63,735 nucleotides of DNA, filler included, from Collodictyon triciliatum (GCA_043381765.1; 11 parts of 11 records of this genome joined end to end with filler, not necessarily neighbours in it); one strand, 5' to 3'. Positions 5,813-60,154 are shown, counted from the whole stretch's first letter. Numbers and translations are program-made. The notes: generated by a model from the letters alone, not told the origin.

Positions 5813-8800
5813 CGTGACCTGCGTCAGAGATATGAGCAAAACACCCATCGACTTTCTAGACCAAAGCAAAGGAACGAAGTCGTGTTGCTTTCTGTGCGAA
5901 ACTGGATTTACGCTCCACAAAGGTGATCCGAAGTCCCTCCCTCAGTCAGAAAAGCACTTGGATATTGTGGAGACTTACAAGAAGGCGCCAACTTTCGTGA
6001 CTTTCAAGTGCGATGGGCATCCTGAGAAAGAAGCAGTGAAGAGGTGTCTGAGTGGCTGTGGGCATATTTGTGAAGATTGTGTTTTCGCCCACCAAACTTT
6101 AAGGATGATCAATAGTCATAAACTTGTGTTAGTCTTATTTTATGTCTATATATTCTACGCTTCTCCATAACTTTCCAGATACTTTTCTTTCTTTGTTTCG
6201 AATGTCAAGATATAATATATAATTGTATCTTTTGTTTAATTTTTACATCTGATTGACGAAAGAATTAAACTCAGTGATGTGGACAAATCGAGGCCAGTTG
6301 TTTTTGATACTGCGTGCCCAGAGCATAAGCTGTCTTTCACAGAATTCTGCCCAAAAGAAAGCTCGGAGAATCCTTTCATGTGTGCAATGTGCATCGGCCA
6401 GCATTTAAGACAAGTTGGAAAGTGCGAACATGGAGAATTCAGTACGGGTGCTCAGAAAATTTGTAAAGATTTAGGCAATAATAAAAAGAAGATGGACGAG
6501 CATAACAAATCCACTGCAACCTTAGTGAACAAGATCGAAGAAAAGCAGACTGAGGTACCCGAAATTCAATCATGCACATCTACACATTTCTTGATTTCAT
6601 GATTTCATGATTTCATGATGGAACTCTTTGCATGTAAGGTTGAAAATTACATCTCGAACTTGAAGAGCAAGGCCAAAGATGGGTTTGAAAAAATAAGAAA
6701 GGTAGTAGATGAGGAAGAGCTGCGATTTATGGAAAAGGTATATGTTCACTTCAATTATATTTTATATCAAAGTAAATGTTGGGATTATAAAACTACCTAT
6801 CAAATATTTAACAGATTGAAGCCTTCCACAAAAAAATCATCTACCCATTTTCTACCATGAAAGAGCATCTGAAATTCTTGAAAGAGCATTTGGAACATTC
6901 AAAGAAATTTGTGGATGAATCAATTAAAGTTTTTGTTGAAGGAAAATCCCCAGTTAAACTTCCTCTAGCCAAAAGAACCTCGACCTCGATGTTGTCGAAA
7001 AAAATTCCTACAATACCTGAAAGCTTTGCTGAATTTACTGAAACTGTGCCAACATTCACTTTTACTGAGACAAAACCTGGAAATATACGACCTCCTGCTG
7101 CGGTTTTTACTGAGTTAATTTCATCCTCCTCTGAACCCCCATTGAGACAGGATTTATCATGCGAATTTCAACCATGGAGTCAGTTCACACCATTTGGACC
7201 ATTTGAGCCCTCGAATCAGCTCACACCATTTGGACCTCAGCCATCGAATCAACCTCAACACAGACCTCAGCCCTCGAATCATTCCTCACCATTTGGACCT
7301 CAGCCATCGAATCAACCTCAGCATGGACCCTCATCAAATCACCCCTCACCATTTGGACCTCAGCCATCGAATCAACCTCAACACAGACCTCAGCCCTCGA
7401 ATCATCCCTCACCATTTGGACCTCAGCCATCGAATCAGCCCAAACAATGTGGACCTCAGTCATTGGTTCAGAACACCATAGGACCTCCCTCTAAACAAGC
7501 TCTCCAACTCAAAGCTCATGCATCGCGTCAATCTCCATTTGATGGGCCCAAAGCTCAACCCGCACAAGCAGCACGCTCACAGGTGAACTCATTATGTAAA
7601 TATCAGTATATAATTGTTAACTATTCCTTGAAATACAACTCCTGAATTTCAACGATGGTTTGGTGGCATAAACACTGAAGGAGGTAAGATTTTAACATAA
7701 AAATACCTTAAAGCTGAAGAATCAAAAATCTATGTTCTCCAATACTTTTATCTTGATATACACAATATAATTTTTAATCAGATTCTTATGATAACCATTA
7801 ATTTTCCCTCTGTTTAAAAAAGCTAGTCCTCCAATAACAATTTTTCATTTTTAAGGGCGTAAATTTTATCTTATCATGATTTTATATTCACATATTATTG
7901 AAGTCATATTAAATCGATGGTGTTGATGTTTCTGTGGAATTATATCGGTTTGAACTAAAACGGAATATAAACATGAATATCATGACGTGATGAAATCATA
8001 GTTTGTGAGTTTATTCTTCCCGGAAAAAGAATAATTCTATTTAATTGTTACGTTGCATGATGTCTATTTTAAATTTGAGATGCATAACTATGTATACAAG
8101 AATAAGAGTTAACTGATTTATGCGAATACAATGCGATGTCATATTCATATGATTTCTGTGTCTAATTTCTCTGTAATCATAGTTTGTAAGTTTTTATTGA
8201 ATTTGAAAGATAAGATAATATGAGATAATAGAAATAAACATACTCATTTTGTAAATATGAGATGCATAATTATGTATACAAGATATAAGTGCTAGATGAT
8301 TCATGTCAATACGCCATGATGCAATATTCATATGATTTCTGTCTGGTGCATGTGTATAATCATAGACTGTATATTTTTATTCTCTTGAAAGATAAGATAA
8401 TATGAGATGATAAAAATAATTCATACGTTCGTTTATAAGTATGAGATGCATAATCATGTATACAAGAAATAAGTGTTAAATGATTCATGTGAATACATCA
8501 TGATGCAATATTCATATAATTTCTGTGTCTGCTATGTGTATAATTATAGAGAGTAATTTTTATTCCTCTTGAAAGATAAGATAATGTGAGACGATAAAAA
8601 TAATTCATACGTTCGTTTATAAGTATGAGATGCATAATCATGTATACAAGAAATAAGTGTTAAGCGACACATGTGAATGCGCCGTGATGCAATATTCATA
8701 TAATTTCTGTGTCTGCTATGTGTATAATTATAGAGAGTAATTTTTATTTCTCTTGAAAGATAAGATAATGTGAGACGATAAAAAAAAATTCATACGTTCG

Positions 8801-10732
8801 TTTATAAGTATGAGATGCATAATCATGTATACAAGAAATAAGTGTTAAGCGACACATGTGAATACGCCGTGATGCAATATTCATATAATTTCTGTGTCTG
8901 ATTTATGTTTATAGGAGGTAAGTCTTTACTTCTCTTGAATGGCGAGATGATATATGATTATAAAATAAACATATTCATTTGTAAATATGGGATGCACAAA
9001 TATTAATACAAGAAATAAGTGTTAACTGACACATGTGAATAAGCCATGATGCAATACGCATATGATTTTATGTTTGTTTTTGTATAATCATAGTCCGTAA
9101 GTTTTTATTCCTCTTGAAAGGCAGGATAATATGAGATGATAAAAAGAATCATAAATTCGTTTGTAAATATGGGATGCACAAATATTAATACAAGAAATAG
9201 GTGTTGACTGACACATGTGAATAAGCCATGATGCAAACTCATATGATTTTATGTCTGTTTGTGTAAAATTATAGAGAGTAATTTTTTTTTTATTCTCTTG
9301 AAATACAAGATAATATGAGATGATAAAAAGAATCATGTATTCGTTTGTAAATATGGAATGCACAAATATTAATACAAGAAATAGGTGTTGACTGACACAT
9401 GTGAATAAGCCATGATGCAATGTTTATAAAATTTCTGTTTCTGATTCGCGTATAATCATAGCCTGTATATTTTTATTCTCTTGATGAGATGCAAGATACT
9501 ATGTGATGATGAAAAGAATCATAAATTCATTTGTAAATATGAGATGCGCAATTATGTATACAAGAAATAAGTTTAAACTGGCACATGCGAATACACCATG
9601 ATGCAATATTCATATAATTTCTGTGTTTGGTATGTTGATAATTATAGCCTGTAAGTTTTTAATTCTGTTGAAAGATAATATAATATGAGGTGCTAAAAAT
9701 AAACATACATTTGTTTGTAAATATGTGATGCACAATTATGTATACAAGAAATAAGTGCTAAATGATTGACATATCTAAATACACCATGATGCAATATTTA
9801 TATGATTTCTGTTTCTGATTTGTGCATGATGATAGGAAGTAAGCTTTTATTCTCCTGAAGGATGTGATAATATGATACGATAAAAAAAAATATCCATATT
9901 CGTATAATTATGAGATTCGTAATTATGTATATAAGAAATAAGTGCTGATTGGCACGCGAATACACCGTGATGCCATATTCATATGATTTCTGTGTCTGAT
10001 ATCTGTTCATAATCATAGAGAGTAAGCCTTTGTTCTTTTAATAGATAAGATCATGTGAAGCGATAAAAATAAATATATGTTCGTTTGTAATTATAAGATG
10101 CTTCATTATGTATTTAAGAAATAAGTGTTAACAGATGCATTTGAATACCCTATGATGTAATATTCATATGATTTCTGCGCCTGGTATGTTTATAATCATA
10201 GCCTGTAAGTTTATTCCTCTTGAATGATAAGATAATATAAGATGATAAAATTTAACATATATTGATATCATTTGTAAATATGAGATGCGTAATTATGTAT
10301 ACTAGAAATAAGTGTTAACTGACACCTAATCAAAGAGAATAGAGAAGCAGCGTGTGGACTCTGAGGAAATAATCCGCCGGATCATGGAGATCGGCTTCTC
10401 CCGTGAAAATGCGATTGACGGCCTCAAAGCCACGGGCGGAAACGACCCAGACCGTGCAGTGGAATATCTGATGCAAATTCTGCCCAGCCTGGGGGTAAAA
10501 GTGATAACAGATACAGAGGAACACATCGTGATGCAATATTCATATGATTTCTGGTTCTGATATGTTTCTATAATTATAGGATGTAAGTCTTTATTTTTCT
10601 TTAAAGACAATAATATATGAGATGTCGCAAATAAAAAAATGCGTTTTTATGAATATATGATACGCAATGTTATGATAACTATAACTTGGCTGATGTTATA
10701 TTAATATACCTTTTTCAAAAAAAAATTAGTAA
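5813..10732 (+). CDS. RING(partial)-B-box-B-box-coiled-coil (TRIM/RBCC-like) protein with P/Q/S repeats, microexon-encoded linker and C-terminal UBA domain
   Basis: Motifs: CCFLC, CDGH..CLSGCGHICEDCVFAH..H (B-box1), CPEH..FC..CAMCIGQH..H (B-box2), then a coiled coil. The large exon ends CAG|gt at 7582. It is followed by 3-nt exons, UBA exon 10336-10494 (EEIIRRIMEIGFSRENAIDGLKATGGNDPDRAVEYL), GAT exon 10580-10582 and ag|TAA at 10730-10732. Confidence 0.75.
7186..7460 (+). repeat. Coding tandem repeat (PFGPQPSNQPQH.., ~60-63 nt unit)
   Basis: Repeated CCATTTGGACCTCAGCCATCGAATCAACCTCA blocks in ORF 6857-7645. Confidence 0.9.
7990..10680 (+). repeat. ~183-bp AT-rich tandem repeat (about 13-14 units), each unit = one intron + one 3-nt exon
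   Basis: Recurring GATAAGATAATATGAGATG..GAGATGCATAATTATGTATACAAGAAATAAGTGTTAA..ATGATGCAATATTCATATGATTTCTG..ATAATCATAG|NNN|GT, spacing 179-188 nt. Confidence 0.92.
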
Positions 10733-11523
10733 GGTTTCTATTCTATAAAACCAATCAAGTTGATTCGTCAAAAACCATATATCACCTCATTATAAACTCT
10801 GTTTCTTTTTGTTTTTATTTCTTGTTACGATGTAATATTCTGAAATACATCAATCCTTATTTTATATGTGTTAAAAAAAAATGGTCAGCATATAAAATTT
10901 TGTTTTTTAAAGCATAGTAAGCCACATTTCCTTGATGCCATTTTAAAGTTATATGTATTGAACAATGTGAATCGCCATATTCGTCATACTTATCGAATTT
11001 TGGTGGAAACTTCTCTCTATTGTATTTCTTCAGAATCGCAAGGTTATTTTTAAAATAATTCCAATATTCGCCTGCTTGCCACTTAATTATTTCTATTCTA
11101 TTTTTTTTTTTTGAGATGGTTAATTGGTCCGCAAAACATAGGATTTCGACTCAACTTCAAACCATGTGAAATCGCCTGCGTTGAGAATCACCTTTGAAGT
11201 TTGCCTAGTTTTTCAGCATTCAGTACGACAATGTCTCGCTGTTGAGATGTTTGTCTCAACATCAATCCTATCAACCCTATCAATCCGCCATGGAATAAAA
11301 TCAAATCAAGCAACTTCGGTGAAAAGGTGAAGGGTGTATGAGCTGCAGTTTTGGATGACTTTGACTTATTGAGATATCGATAAACTGTTCATCCAACCCG
11401 AAGAAATGTAAAGCAACACAGATATATTTATGCCTAGGAAGCCCTTTAGAACTCGGCACGATTTATTTGCTGAACCTGCTGGTATGGTGTGTTTGTGCTG
11501 GTCTTAAAATGGAACAGGAAACG

Positions 11524-12384: not shown

Positions 12385-13500
12385 AACCACCTTCGCCTCT
12401 TGGACAAGAAATGAACTGTGGACGAGACAGTGGAAAACCCCGGATTTTGTGGTTGGAATTTTTGTGTTTTGAAACGAAAAAAGAAAATAGAAAGGAGAGA
12501 GTATTTGTCCTCACACACAGACTATTCTACCCGAGGTGAATCAGCTCCAACGCGGTTTCCGGTTGTATTCGAGACTGACAGAAGAGCGGATAAAGTTGTC
12601 GGGTCGATGAAAATATGCACATGGCTGTTACTTCTCAAATCGATTCCGACGAGTCCTTTCATCCGTCTATCTCAGACAAGGGCTTACATCCTATTTCATT
12701 CCACTGGATGAGTCTTTTGAGGGGACAACGGGTCACTTTCATTGCGTTTCTTGCTGGGCGACTCAGACAGACAAAAAGCGATACATCGTTGTTTGTCTGG
12801 TATTTTCGGAAGAGGCGCTTGACCGTCCCCTGGTTTCAGGAACCATGCGTAGCCGGCAGTGGACTTTGTTTAACAGGAGTATGGATACGCGTTTGTGGTT
12901 TTAGAAACATACGCTCCTGCTTGCTCGGACTGTCTTTAAAGTGTGAAGTTCCAAGCTTGGATTCGACTTTTGCTGTTTGCTTTTGCTCCTTGGTTCTTGG
13001 TGCGACGGGCTGGGGAAGGATAAACGGACTATCTTTGGTGGGCGCTGGTTCTTGTGTTGCTTTCGCTTTGGCGTATCCTTTCGGATAAGTAACGAAGACT
13101 GCCTTGATGCCTCCTGTGTTAACCATATTCACGTCAGTCTGAATGGGTAGTTTGAGGGGGGATTTCTTTCGGGGTTTGGAGATGCGCTGCTCTTGAGTCT
13201 TGCGATGCGCGGGCTTGTCCAGTGTTGGCGGTGGAGGGCTCGAGTGCGAGGATTCTGAAGAGGAACCGAATTTCCTTCCATGTCATCGTCGCTGTCGCTG
13301 TATGCGCGTATCTGCTGCGTGTCTTGTGGACTCTGATGTTGCCCGGCCTTGGCTTCCTTGCACGGGTCTTCCTTTGGACTTACGTGCAACTCGGGGGTTT
13401 TCCGCAACAGCGTTGGAACCAGAAGAATTGGCTGCAACTTGCAAAGTTTTCGATGTTCTCGTGGCTTATGTTTTCCATCCGTCTCGGCTCGTGTTTTCCA
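12385..13500 (-). mobile_element. Degenerate non-LTR retrotransposon (L1/Tx1-like) ORF1 region, internally deleted copy A
   Basis: Clear similarity to 14470-15350 (+) and 21065-22255 (-); frameshifts and stops present. Confidence 0.65.
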
Positions 13501-55200: not shown

Positions 55201-55263
55201 GAGCATAATCTTTTCCAGAGTAATAATCGGTAACAATATTACCAAAAGAAAACAACCATAAGA

Positions 55264-57939
55264 ATGAAATTTCATTATCTAAATATTATAGGTATTTTCA
55301 TCTTGCTTCAGATTCTATCATGTATGGGTCAAGTGTCGTCTGTGTTCACTGCTGGAACAGGCCATACAGGAGCTGTTTGGGAAGGAAATATTTCATTTGA
55401 TGGAATCAATATTATATCATGCAGCGATGACAGAACAATCAAGATTTGGAGTTTTCAAGATGGAACTTTGATTCGAACATTGACTGGTCACACTAGTGGA
55501 GTCGCTAGTGTCATTATATCGCGTGACGGTTCCAAGGTTGTTTCAGGAAGTTTTGATAAAACAATAAAAATTTGGAATCGTAATGAAGGCACTTTATTGA
55601 TTACTTTAGTCGGACACACTGAGTATATTTGGAGCGTAGCAATTACTCTTGATGGCTCAAAAATTGTCTCTGGAAGCCAAGATACGACGATAAAAATTTG
55701 GAATCTTTCTGATGGAACTTTGATCCGCACTTTGATGGGACATTCTAGTACAGTTCGCAGGGTGGTTTTCACCCCAGATGATTTAAAAATCGTATCAGGA
55801 AGTTTTGATAAAACTATCAAAATATGGAATCTTTCTGACGGAGCTTTGATTCGCACATTGACTGATCATTCTAAATTTGTTTTTTGTGTAACTGTTTCTC
55901 CAGATGGTTCAAAAATTGTTTCTGGAAGCCAAGACAATTCAATTAAAATTTGGAATCTTTTAGATGGAACTTTGATCCGCACTTTGACTGGTCATACTAA
56001 TAATATTAACAGCGTTGTTGTTACACCTGATGGCTCAAAAATTGTTTCTGGGAGTTGGGATAACACCATAAAAATATGGAAACTTTCTGACGGAACTTTG
56101 ATTCGTACATTGACTGGACACCTATCTTACGTTTTAAGTGTTGCAGTTAATTATGATAGCTCGAATATTTTTTCTGTAGGTTCTGATAGAACCATTAAAG
56201 TTTGGAATATTTCTTTTGGAATTCTAATATACTCGAAAGGCTCGAGAGTGACCTCAATTGTGACATCTTCTGCCAAATCGATCTTTATTACAGGACATTC
56301 AGACAACATCATCAGAATTTGGAATCTGTCAAATGGAAATTTCATTAGTTCGATGGATGCTCATTCTGGTATTGTAAATACATTGTCACTAATCGCTGAT
56401 AACTCTAAAGTCATATCTGGAAGCTCAGATAAAACAATGAAGTTATGGAATGTCGATGATGGCTCTTTGATTCAATCATTTCAAGTCCATATAGATTCAG
56501 TGAACTGTGTCGCCATTACAAATGATGGAAACATAATTGTTTCTGGTAGCAGCGATAAAACCATCAAAATTACAAGGATATCTGACGGAAATATAATTCA
56601 CATATTAAATGGACACACTGAAATAATCACAAGTGTAGCTTTAACTCCTGATGGCTCAAAAATTGTTTCTGGAAGTTCTGACAAAACCGTCAAAGTCTGG
56701 AATTTTAATGACGGAACATTGGTACAAAATATAAAATTTCATGCTGATTCTGTTAATTGTGTTGCTGTAACGCCAGATGGAACGAAAATTGTTTCTGGAA
56801 GCAGCGATAGAACAATAAAAGTGACCAGCATTTTGGATGGAAGTTTGATTCGCTCTCTCAATGGACACACAGGAATAATCAAAAGTGTTTCGATTTCTCC
56901 AGACGGCTCCAAGATTATTTCTGGAAGCAGTGACAAAACCATCAGAATTTGGAGTCAATCAAGTGGAACGACTATAAATATCATCAATGAACATGCCGTT
57001 ACAATCACGGGAACATCAGTTCTCTCAGACGGCACAAAATTTCTCTCAGGAAGCGATGACACAACAATCAAGTTGTGGTATTTTCCTGATTTCAGCTTGA
57101 CTTTGACGGTTTCAGGCCACAGCGGCTCAGTCAATAGTGTTGCTTTAAGCCCCGACAAAACAAAAATTGTGTCAGGAGGTAGCGATAACACAATTAAAAT
57201 TTGGAATTATGCTGATGGTTCTCTAACGCTATCAATAAGTGCCCATTCAAATTCTGTCAATAGTATTATTGTTTCGGCTGATGGAACCAAAGTCGTGTCA
57301 GGAAGCAGTGATAGCACCGTAATAATGTGGAATTTTTCGGATGGTTTACTTTTGAAAACATTTAGAGGACATACCGCTGCTGTTCGAAGCGTTGCAATAT
57401 TACCAAATAATTCTGTGATTGTATCAGGAAGTGATGACATGACTATAAATATTTGGAGTGCTTCAGATGGAATTATAATTCGCACCTTATCTGGTCATAC
57501 GAAAGCAGTGAATTCTGTTTTTATTGCGCCTGATAATACCAGGATTATATCAGGCAGTGCTGATTTTTCCATAATAGTTTGGAATATGTCAGATGGAGCA
57601 TTAATAAGAACGATTACCGGCCACGGAAATGCTGTAAGATGCGTTCTTACATCTCTAGATGGGATGCGAATCATATCTGGAAGTAGTGATAACACAATCA
57701 AGATTTGGAATGTGTCAGATGGTATCTTGATTCGAACGCTCATTGGACACACAAGTTCAGTAAATAGCATTTCATTTTCACCTGATGGAACGAAATTGCA
57801 CTCTGGAAGCAGTGATAAATCAGTCAAAATATGGTCAATATCAGATGGACGAGAAATTCGAACGCTTTTAAGTCACACCAATTCAGTTAATAGTGTTTTT
57901 GCCACTCCAGATTCAAAAATAATTTCAGCAAGCACAGAC
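55264..57939 (+). CDS. Intronless WD40-repeat protein (~20 highly regular repeats) with N-terminal signal-peptide-like segment; 3'-truncated by contig end
   Basis: Repeated GH..V.SV..SPDGSKIVSGS.D.TIKIW; N-terminus MKFHYLNIIGIFILLQILSCMG. Confidence 0.93.
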
Positions 57940-58039
57940 NNNNNNNNNNNNNNNNNNNNNNNNNNNNNNNNNNNNNNNNNNNNTTAATTAATTAANNNNN
58001 NNNNNNNNNNNNNNNNNNNNNNNNNNNNNNNNNNNNNNN
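57940..58039. other. Artificial contig linker
   Basis: N44-TTAATTAATTAA-N44. Confidence 0.99.
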
Positions 58040-58370
58040 ACATAAAGAGTCGGGATAAAGCTGTATGTAAACCTCGGTAACGCTAAGCCTGTGCGATCAG
58101 GGTTATCCGTTTATTCAAGTTTCGTACCCTTTTTTTTCGTTCTTTTCAAGGCGGGCGGCTTCGGCAGCCGCTCGCCTCGCATGCGCGATCCTTTTTTTTG
58201 CAGCAGCCGGCCAGTCGCCAACCGGTCTCGAGTCTCGAGTCGAGTCGACCTGCAAATGTCGTCTGCAACACTCAGCTACTCGCACAAGCAACGCAACGCG
58301 GACTCGCGAGCACACCCGCACCCACGAGCACGCACACTCCTGCACGCACAAGACTCGAACGCCTGCAAAG

Positions 58371-59425
58371 GCACTCCACTATGCCGGAATACGACGAAGT
58401 CTGCTGCACCCACGAGCACCGCAAAGGCTCTCCACTATGCCGGAATACGACGAAGTCCGCTTCACACGCAAGCACCACAAAGGAACTCCACTATGCCGGA
58501 ATACACCGAAGTCCGCTTCACAAGACCTGCAAAAGCCACCCCACTATGCCGGAATACGACGAAGTCTGCTGCACCCACGAGCACCGCAAAGGCGCTCCAC
58601 TATGCCGGAATACGATGAAGTTTGCTTCACACACACAAGATCCACATGGCTCTTCACTATGCCGGAATACGACCAAGTCTGCTTCACAAGACCCTAAAGG
58701 CTCTCCGCTATGCCGGAATACGAAGAATGCTTCACACAAGACCCGCAAATGCTCTCCATGCCGAAATACGACGAAGTCTGCTTCACACACACGCAAAACC
58801 CGCAAAAGCTCCACTATGCTGGCATACGACCAAGTCTGCTTGACCTGCCAAGGCACTCCACTATGCCGGAATACGAAGAAGTCTGCTTCACACAAGACCC
58901 GCAAATGCTCTCCATGCCGAAATACGACGAAGTCTGCTTCACACGCAAGACATGTGCACTCCACTATGCCGGAATACGACCAAGTCTGCTTCACAAATCC
59001 CACAAAGGCACTCCGCTATGCCGGAATACGACCAAGTCTGCCTCACACACAAGACATGTGCACTCCACTATGCCGGAATACGACGAAATCTGCTTCACAC
59101 GCAAGACCCGCGAAGGCTGTGCGTTATGCCGGAATACGACGAAATCTGCTTCACACCAGACCCGCAAAGGCTCTCCACATAGCCGGAATACGACAAAGTC
59201 TGCTTCACACGCAAGAACCCGCAAAGGCACTCCACTATGACGGAATACGACAAAGTCTGCTGCACCCACACGTACACAAAGGAACTGCACTATGCCGGAA
59301 TACGACCAAGTCTGCTTGACCCGCAAAGGCTCTCCACATAGCTGGAATACGACGAAATCTGCTTCACACCAGACCCGCAAAGGCTCTCCACATAGCCGGA
59401 ATACGACGAAATCTGCTTCACACCA
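58371..59425. repeat. Minisatellite, ~20 units of ~45-58 nt with conserved core CACTATGCCGGAATACGACGAAGTCTGCTTCAC and variable linkers
   Basis: About 20 core copies counted by eye; linkers are related (..GACCCGCAAAGGCTCTC..). Confidence 0.92.
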
Positions 59426-60154
59426 GCACAAGGAAGAATACGAACTCGCTGCGGCAAAGATGAAAGGTTCACTCACTCATTATACAAGCCATGTAACACC
59501 CTCACAGCATGAAAAAAAAAGATAGAAATAAACATGGACATTAATGGCATGAAGAAGCAAATTTTCATCCAAAAAGGGAAAGAGGTAATTTACAATCCGT
59601 ACGATTATCACCATACATTTTTCAATCTGTGGAATTTACAGCATATACATATTTTGTGGTGCATGTCGAATACTGTGTCATTAATTTTTCCAAATTTTTG
59701 CAGCAGGAATACACGTTGTGCATCATTAGGAGATATCGTACCTGGAGCATTCGAGAATGTTCTGCCTTCCCAATCACCACACGAGCCACACACCGCACAC
59801 GAGCAACACACACCCCAATCCGCCCACTATATATTGAGATAGCCGCATATTTATTCGGATGGAAGATTCGCCGGCTTTTGTGGGATATTTAACCTTCGTC
59901 CCGTCGAAATCACTGCTGCCTTGCGCTCTTTCTTTCTCGCTACCTTATCGCACCACTCATTCGCAATGCGCGTTCTATTCTCTGTGTGCACAACCGCACT
60001 GCTCCCACCCAGCAACGTCAGTCTGTGTGACTTGTCAAGTGCATTCACAAAACAAAACAAATAAACACCGCAGTGCACTAACACACAACCCAGTCCACCC
60101 GCCCACACAGCCCCCAGAACCCACCCAAACCGCCCCCGCCCCACATCTGTTGGC

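Follow-up and report, generated by a model that had tools for sequence, protein, structure and literature searches.

The window analysed here is a 63,735-nt stretch of DNA from Collodictyon triciliatum (GCA_043381765.1), composed of 11 parts joined end to end with filler. Its plus strand at 5.8–11.3 kb, which is eukaryotic DNA, holds one gene encoding B-box-like, coiled-coil-like and UBA parts. Between the proline-rich exon of this gene and the exon of the UBA domain lies a 2.3-kb "satellite" formed by intron-like units of ~180 nt, arranged head to tail with a single triplet between each unit and the next. This array is the subject of the present work. In the reading favoured below, each unit would be an intron and each triplet a one-codon exon.

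Organization of the gene and of the array

The UBA exon matches Pfam PF00627 above the curated cut-off (39.2 bits, cut-off 22.4, E 6.1e-10); the match of the B-box-like exons to Pfam zf-B_box is weak (E 0.0033, under the cut-off). An earlier, sequence-only reading of the same DNA had let the UBA exon end at the edge of the array, and its extent is corrected here to 10336–10494. The proline-rich exon contains a coding 33/63-nt tandem repeat (7188–7463) that encodes the proline-rich motif. Contigs of relatives (see below) skip or repeat 88–141 nt within it, so the copy number of this repeat is variable too. If position 7582 is joined through all the triplets into the UBA exon, the reading frame stays open, while the sequence 7583–8004 is closed in all three frames. 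A protein search with the proline-rich exon against longer proteins gave no match, and the same was the case for the UBA exon against proteins of near length; hence there is no annotated orthologue that would demonstrate how others model the linker between them. The protein-based metagenome scan with the B-box-region exon resulted in 241 pattern matches and 0 relatives.

Transcript evidence was taken from two runs guessed to be RNA (X1 and X2), which represent other organisms or paralogues of the gene in the window with 82–98% identity. They were accepted as RNA because their contigs carry GT..AG joints and non-templated poly(A). Two further runs with a small share are freshwater metagenome DNA. 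Parts of the gene without contig cover were not used as evidence. Four introns of the gene are confirmed by RNA contigs; they are 77–172 nt long and start with GTTAGT, GTATAT, GTAAGA and GTTATT. At the 3' end AATAAA is found at 11294–11299, and poly(A) addition takes place 14 nt later, at 11313, with 21 non-templated A in contigs of the two RNA-like runs.

Tandem Repeats Finder describes the array as 12.3 copies with a period of 184 at 8070–10325 (80% matches). The scan for ATAG-NNN-GT gives 14 junctions at 7998–10576 and 1 elsewhere in the 63.7-kb window. The junctions bound 12 full units of 176–185 nt, each of which starts with GT and ends with AG. Each repeated segment thus carries both an acceptor and a donor (AG-NNN-GT at 14/14 junctions); AG and GT are invariant at all 14, and the spacer between them is 3 nt in every case, despite the unit length differing at several other places. 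A profile of the 12 units has 15 matches, all of them contiguous and within 8001–10688. These are the 12 units themselves, a 13th one split by the UBA exon (10210–10326 and 10499–10580) and a partial 14th (10583–10668), which bears out the 12–13 consecutive homologous introns of ~180 nt that had been proposed previously. The triplets follow in the order TTT, TTT, ACT, AGA, AGA, GAG, TCC, AGA, CCT, CCT, GAA, AGA and CCT, then comes the UBA exon and then GAT. The pattern YAGNNNGTAAG occurs 9 times in the window, 1.95 occurrences being expected, but 8 of the 9 fall at the array locus, and the idea of further microexon chains elsewhere in the window was rejected. The sole TAG-GAT-GTAAG site outside the locus is located on the minus strand at 12683–12693; its triplet and flanks match those of the junction at 10577–10587.

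The sequence upstream of the array had been read as a single first intron (7583–8001). This does not hold, as it contains two more AG-NNN-GT sites, namely GAG at 7681–7683 and GGC at 7856–7858. Both sit in non-repetitive sequence. Since they bound an intron that is spliced out in the RNA of relatives (7684–7855), the chain of candidate one-codon exons starts before the repeat. Altogether the candidate one-codon exons as predicted from the sequence number 16, every one of them 3 nt long, and lie between the proline-rich, UBA and terminal exons; the introns of the candidate chain are 85–185 nt long. All features are collected in Table 1.

Table 1. Coordinates of the exons, introns and triplets at the array locus, counted from the first letter of the window.
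Feature	Position	Strand	Description
Proline-rich coding exon, end part	6812..7582	+	Open reading frame 6812–7645; exon long, ends in proline-rich repeats
Candidate phase-0 donor, CAG/GTGAAC	7582/7583	+	Splice-site inspection
Candidate intron a	7583..7680	+	98 nt, GT..AG; splice-site inspection
Candidate 3-nt exon GAG	7681..7683	+	AG-GAG-GT; donor used in RNA of relatives
Intron b	7684..7855	+	172 nt; spliced out in contigs of X1 and X2
Candidate 3-nt exon GGC	7856..7858	+	AG-GGC-GT; acceptor used in RNA of relatives
Candidate intron c	7859..8001	+	143 nt; last ~10 nt alone resemble the 3' end of a unit
First array triplet, TTT	8002..8004	+	ATAG-NNN-GT scan; homologous triplet is ACT in X1
Units U1–U12	8005..10201	+	Twelve paralogous units, 176–185 nt, each GT..AG
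Triplets of U1–U12 (first base)	TTT 8183, ACT 8366, AGA 8550, AGA 8734, GAG 8915, TCC 9094, AGA 9275, CCT 9462, CCT 9648, GAA 9836, AGA 10019		
Triplet CCT, last before the UBA exon	10202..10204	+	ATAG-NNN-GT scan
Intron before the UBA exon	10205..10335	+	5' 121 nt of unit 13 and 10 unique nt ending in AAAG
UBA-domain exon	10336..10494	+	53 codons, phase 0 at both ends; Pfam UBA PF00627
Intron after the UBA exon	10495..10579	+	85 nt; GTAA, then 3' part of unit 13
Triplet GAT	10580..10582	+	ATAG-NNN-GT scan; GAT also among the four codon-sized pieces of X2
Last intron	10583..10729	+	147 nt; first 86 nt homologous to 5' part of the unit, rest unique
Terminal exons	10730..11313	+	Begin with in-frame TAA; intron 11043–11141 RNA-verified; poly(A) site 11313

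The UBA exon is lodged within unit 13 together with 10 nt before and 3–4 nt after it (10326–10498, 173 nt). In the nhmmer alignment the two halves of this unit correspond to model positions 10–121 (10210–10326) and 105–184 (10499–10580), and excision of 10326–10498 would give back a unit of ~186 nt. The exon is flanked by a 16-nt direct repeat, 10310–10325 and 10499–10514, identical at 13 of 16 positions. It looks as if exon shuffling has placed a UBA domain exon, of phase 0 at both ends, in one of the array's introns, or as if, in reverse, the exon has been lost from the other units.

Several other interpretations of the units were tried and rejected. Coding on the minus strand of the array would consist only of broken open reading frames of 50–111 aa, and the unit lengths are not multiples of 3. 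A partial unit at the left edge is not found: the local alignment score of 7859–8004 against the units is 18–20 and the mean for shuffled sequences is 20.5. Intron-hosted small nucleolar RNAs (snoRNAs) were rejected as well, as Rfam gives 0 matches in 7400–11400 at E up to 1 and the box-C-like TGATGC lacks the final GA. The consensus fold of the 12 units (-5.0 kcal/mol, double changes in 2 of 20 pairs) provides no supported structure. The two most conserved blocks of the unit (columns of 8080–8095 and 8140–8160) are predicted to pair mutually, accounting for 12 of the 20 consensus pairs with almost no covariation.

Variability of the triplets and growth of the array

For comparison of the junctions the array was re-cut with the junction in the middle of each piece, and the 12 resulting pieces were aligned, giving 183 scored columns. 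The variability (pi) of the three triplet columns is 0.77, 0.74 and 0.70, that is ranks 1, 2 and 5 of 183, at a mean pi of 0.225 and with 66 of the 183 columns invariant. The triplet is the most variable run of three columns (0.74); the next non-overlapping one reaches 0.50. Its adjacent bases, TAG on one side and GT on the other, show no variation. On a unit tree calculated from all non-triplet columns, the triplet columns require 7, 6 and 5 Fitch steps, whereas the other 180 columns require 1.23 on average and 5 at most. Thus, the triplets are hypervariable at a fixed length. Neither the alignment nor the unit tree conforms to a neutral satellite, in which the triplet columns would be no more variable than other columns and the AG and GT no more conserved.

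The relation of the triplets to their surroundings was examined in flanks of ±25 columns. The three closest junctions (flanks 2–9% different) all have AGA, and in junction pairs with flanks 14–19% different the triplets already differ at 2–3 of 3 positions. The triplets are saturated, and no measurable x-fold faster rate can be derived for them. The triplet also tracks the variant of the 5' splice site: AGA goes with GTAATT in 3 of 3 cases and ACT or CCT with GTATAT in 2 of 2. Since the triplets go with the intron's own 5' variant, they were inherited as part of the repeat. The previous claim that the triplet diverges faster than its flanks therefore stands as a measurement of column variability, but a part of the effect comes from intron bodies that are homogenised while the junction modules remain distinct.

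Such homogenisation is seen in U6–U8, where it is the central part of the unit that is shared, and the junction modules differ. As these units share middles but not junctions, the bodies of neighbouring introns are homogenised by unequal exchange or conversion. The subfamily at 8918–9461 that had been recognised from the sequence corresponds to these units: both of its diagnostic strings are present exactly three times, in U6–U8, which then end in TCC, AGA and CCT. The other subfamily (8369–8914), described as near-identical around two AGA triplets, is also recovered, U3–U5 being 85–91% alike. It contains the youngest block of the array, in which 8382–8715 is near-identical to 8566–8900 at a lag of 184 and, past a 1-nt indel, of 185. 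The two AGA triplets lie within this block, the left boundary of which is 14 nt into an intron, and the right one ~10 nt short of an acceptor. The young copies hence represent a block of 2.8 units that was copied with its triplets included and with breakpoints inside introns. Both ends of the youngest block are within ~14 nt of a junction, and homogenisation seems to halt before the junction modules.

Adjacent units have a mean identity of 0.77, which decreases to 0.73 at lag 2 and to ~0.70 for more distant pairs. On its right side the array closes with an incomplete unit (model positions 3–88 at 10583–10668 in nhmmer, E 5e-4), followed by unique sequence. The decay of similarity with distance, the copying of the triplets along with the introns and the partial right edge all agree with tandem duplication, one of the two models that had been put forward for this locus. 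The array grew, very probably, by tandem duplication or unequal crossing-over of a cassette composed of an intron and a codon. The number of units on either side of the UBA exon turns over quickly, because X1 and X2 have at least 3 full units between the UBA and terminal exons and the window has one junction there.

The second model explains the array by an introner-like mobile intron that was inserted repeatedly, 3 nt apart, into a pre-existing coding stretch, so that the triplets are remnants of the host exon. The length of the units is typical of published introners. The triplets are mutually saturated once the local flanks differ by ~14% or more, and their G+C content of 0.40 exceeds the 0.28 of the array; both count in favour of this model. 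The distribution of the copies points the other way: all 15 profile matches are at one locus and none is found in the other ~61 kb of the window, and the 23-nt unit pattern had 0 matches in one metagenome scan. No inverted repeat joining the unit ends was found, and an identical triplet is present on both sides of only 3 of the 12 units. Moreover, the youngest copies arose as the 2.8-unit block with its triplets, the triplets co-vary with the unit's own 5' end, and the last intron is a partial copy. We also know of no mechanism that would make 13 independent insertions at an exact spacing of 3 nt. With copies sought in the window and in one metagenome scan, repeated insertion is for these reasons highly improbable here.

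The array could also be an ordinary transcribed minisatellite, in which copying of a 184-nt repeat multiplied the one ancestral acceptor-codon-donor junction that it contained, the units are not individually spliced and the triplets are not translated; its setting would be a single long intron (7583–10335) or an untranslated tail. This explanation gives no reason why the three columns between invariant AG and GT should top the variability of 183 columns while their length remains fixed. A 2.75-kb intron would in addition exceed the longest of the four verified introns of the gene 16-fold, and the UBA exon has to be connected in frame with the upstream open reading frame. The RNA of the relatives bears on this explanation from both sides.

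Splicing in the RNA of relatives

The intron 7684–7855 is removed exactly between AG-GAG-GT and AG-GGC-GT, in one contig each of X1 and X2 (joint 7681>7854, cut +2, GT..AG). Two 3-nt-spaced sites upstream of the array, 7683 and 7856, are therefore used, one side each, in both relatives, which is a further point against a minisatellite. Two ends of X1 contigs are located exactly at splice sites: one contig stops right after the first array triplet (ACT in X1), and another begins at the first base of the UBA exon. We infer that these exact ends reflect branching of the de Bruijn graph at a splice site in use.

In X2 the donor of the UBA exon at 10494 is used, and it is followed by ten letters, CAAGATCAAT, and then by the terminal region. 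Read in frame, these letters give CAA, GAT, CAA and TAT. CAA and TAT are triplets found at unspliced unit junctions in the X1 and X2 runs. TAT occupies the final junction ahead of the terminal intron, where the window itself has GAT. The letters after the UBA exon of X2 are what looks like four codon-sized pieces joined together.

The relatives' junctions among those listed keep ATCATAG-NNN-GTA in 4 of 4 cases and have other triplets (ACT, TAT, CAA and TAT, of which one TAT comes from a metagenome DNA contig). The AGA of the window at 8550–8552 reads TGT in two X2 contigs, and this accounts for 2 of the 4 array differences among those listed. A minisatellite leaves unexplained why relatives retain this frame-neutral layout with other triplets.

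A number of observations weigh against serial splicing of the array. In one X1 contig (record 6, 1170 nt) three unspliced junctions are continuous with a spliced, poly(A)-tailed 3' end, and one X2 contig (record 11) runs ~160 nt past the first array donor. The latter and X1 record 5 pass unspliced through 7582, which is the sole in-frame donor, and retain the candidate introns a (7583–7680) and c (7859–8001). In the sequence of the window, read-through at 7582 leads to a stop at 7643–7645, so that neither the array nor the UBA exon is translated. Among the joints listed, none leads from 7582 or from the array interior to the UBA exon. The ten letters of X2 could instead belong to the genomic sequence of a terminal exon that has diverged in the relative; they resemble the A-rich sequence 10715–10724 of the window at ~10 of 15 positions. 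The junctions of X1, in the order CAA, one unknown, TAT, cannot simply be matched to CAA-GAT-CAA-TAT. The RNA evidence as a whole derives from X1 and X2, i.e. from other organisms or paralogues, and not from the organism of the window. As for the array itself, 36% of all its unit columns are invariant anyway, and an invariant AG together with GT has by itself a chance of ~0.02. The absence of stop triplets is uninformative (0.26 expected by chance).

The minisatellite gains from these observations, since at either edge of the array the relatives' contigs contain unspliced units, the donor at 7582 is passed, and no spliced chain across the array is present among the joints listed. Taken with the fixed-length variability of the triplets and the use of 7683 and 7856, it seems to us an unlikely explanation, although one to be reckoned with.

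It is also conceivable that the introns are real and the array serves as a set of alternative donors and acceptors. In this case a donor would mostly jump to the UBA acceptor, leaving zero to few triplets in the mRNA, and the array would tune the length of the linker or the fate of the transcript (detained introns, decay) rather than encode a fixed stretch of 13 residues. All junctions are in phase 0, so that any donor-acceptor pair preserves the frame; the breaks of the X1 contigs coincide exactly with the first array donor and the UBA acceptor, and partly spliced forms are abundant. Nevertheless, no joint of this kind is present among those listed, and the four codon-sized pieces after the UBA exon of X2 suggest serial inclusion and not skipping. 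We consider such use of the array quite improbable.

Proposed mechanism and relation to known systems

We favour, with a probability of about 0.55, the full reading in which a tandem origin of the array is combined with serial splicing, each unit leaving one codon behind. The duplicated cassette would begin within one intron and end within the next, enclosing the 3' part of the first with its AG, a single codon, and the GT with the 5' part of the second, so that each extra copy would produce one complete intron of ~180 nt and one codon. In the B-box/coiled-coil protein these codons would lengthen the linker that connects the proline-rich region with the C-terminal UBA domain. Recombination among neighbouring units would maintain the likeness of the intron bodies, and selection for splicing and for the reading frame would hold the splice dinucleotides and the 3-nt spacing, the codon itself being free, or pushed, to change. 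The introns would need to be taken out one after another, because a 3-nt exon cannot bear acceptor and donor complexes simultaneously, and many partly spliced intermediates would be left. The 5' sites of the units (GTAAGT, GTAATT, GTATAT) and their lengths resemble those of the four RNA-verified introns of the gene. To judge from the window's own sequence, translation of the candidate triplets is plausible. We infer that all units are spliced, that the triplets are translated and that selection acts on them.

A more far-reaching version would regard the locus as a splicing-based generator of diversity on a TRIM-like protein, in which a cassette of one-codon exons expands and contracts by unequal crossing-over, diversifying selection acts on the codons, and their serial or selective splicing gives many variants of the linker beside the ubiquitin-binding domain, with recurrence in paralogous B-box genes of the organism and, convergently, in other protists and fungi. 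This version is doubtful.

Elsewhere in the window two other repetitive regions were observed. An uninterrupted WD40-repeat open reading frame of 917 codons (55234–57987) has a periodicity of 126/252 nt and runs into an assembly gap. At 58365–59432 there is a G+C-richer tandem array of ~20 copies of 56 nt (73% matches) with long open reading frames in several frames.

A literature search for arrays of 3-nt or single-codon exons returned only isolated 3-nt exons and papers on intron gain. The array is classed here as a variant of tandem exon-intron duplication and of micro-exon genes (MEGs), and MEGs would be, on the features predicted for the window, the nearest named class, from which it differs in the range of exon size, the intron length, the paralogy of the introns and the host gene. 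The MEGs of Schistosoma have exons of 3–81 bp among long introns of up to 5 kb (PMC10526429). The array would share with them a series of very short exons that stay in frame in any combination, each being a multiple of three in length, as well as variable and probably disordered protein segments and growth for which duplication is invoked. Unlike in MEGs, the candidate exons of the array all measure exactly 3 nt, its introns have lengths of 85–185 nt, and 12 of these introns are paralogous and head to tail. The hosts differ too: a MEG codes for a secreted trematode protein, while the array lies in a B-box/UBA gene of a freshwater eukaryote.

Serial iteration of exon and intron is said to occur in the flagelliform silk genes of spiders, the introns of which are reportedly more alike than the exons. 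The likeness to the array would be in concerted evolution, with intron copies homogenised above the coding parts. The silk exons are reportedly hundreds of bases long and encode repeat motifs, in contrast to an "exon" of one codon here.

The origin of introns by duplication is the subject of the AGGT-duplication model of intron gain. Intron gain by tandem genomic duplication is described for potato RdRp, and there as here a duplication carrying an acceptor and a donor makes a complete intron with no mobile element (PMC4974935). The known gains by tandem duplication are single events that restored the original mRNA, whereas in the array the process is iterated at least 12 times, and each time would add one codon. 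Introners and the array have in common that families of near-identical short introns stand behind recent intron gain; in the introner study only a part of the families have target-site duplications (TSDs) of 3–9 bp or terminal inverted repeats (TIRs) (49/130 and 72/177), and the word "tandem" is absent from its main text (PMC9860276). Introners are dispersed across many genes, and the copies found here are all head to tail in one gene and devoid of TSD and TIR marks. That the spliceosome can include a 3-nt exon is evident from micro-exon 8 of Drosophila homothorax (PMC7392893) and from human RPS24 (PMC12207440). Those exons are single, conserved and often alternative, in contrast to a run of at least a dozen with paralogous flanking introns.

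Should the triplets be spliced in, introns would be gained and the protein elongated together at this locus, with one codon and one intron per duplication. Such a route of intron gain would be concrete, datable and independent of mobile elements. The limits of exon recognition would be pushed to at least a dozen consecutive 3-nt exons, and serial (recursive-like) splicing would become testable in a natural substrate. The signature of fixed splice sites, fixed 3-nt spacing and saturated codons could reveal arrays of this kind hidden among "satellites" in other genomes.

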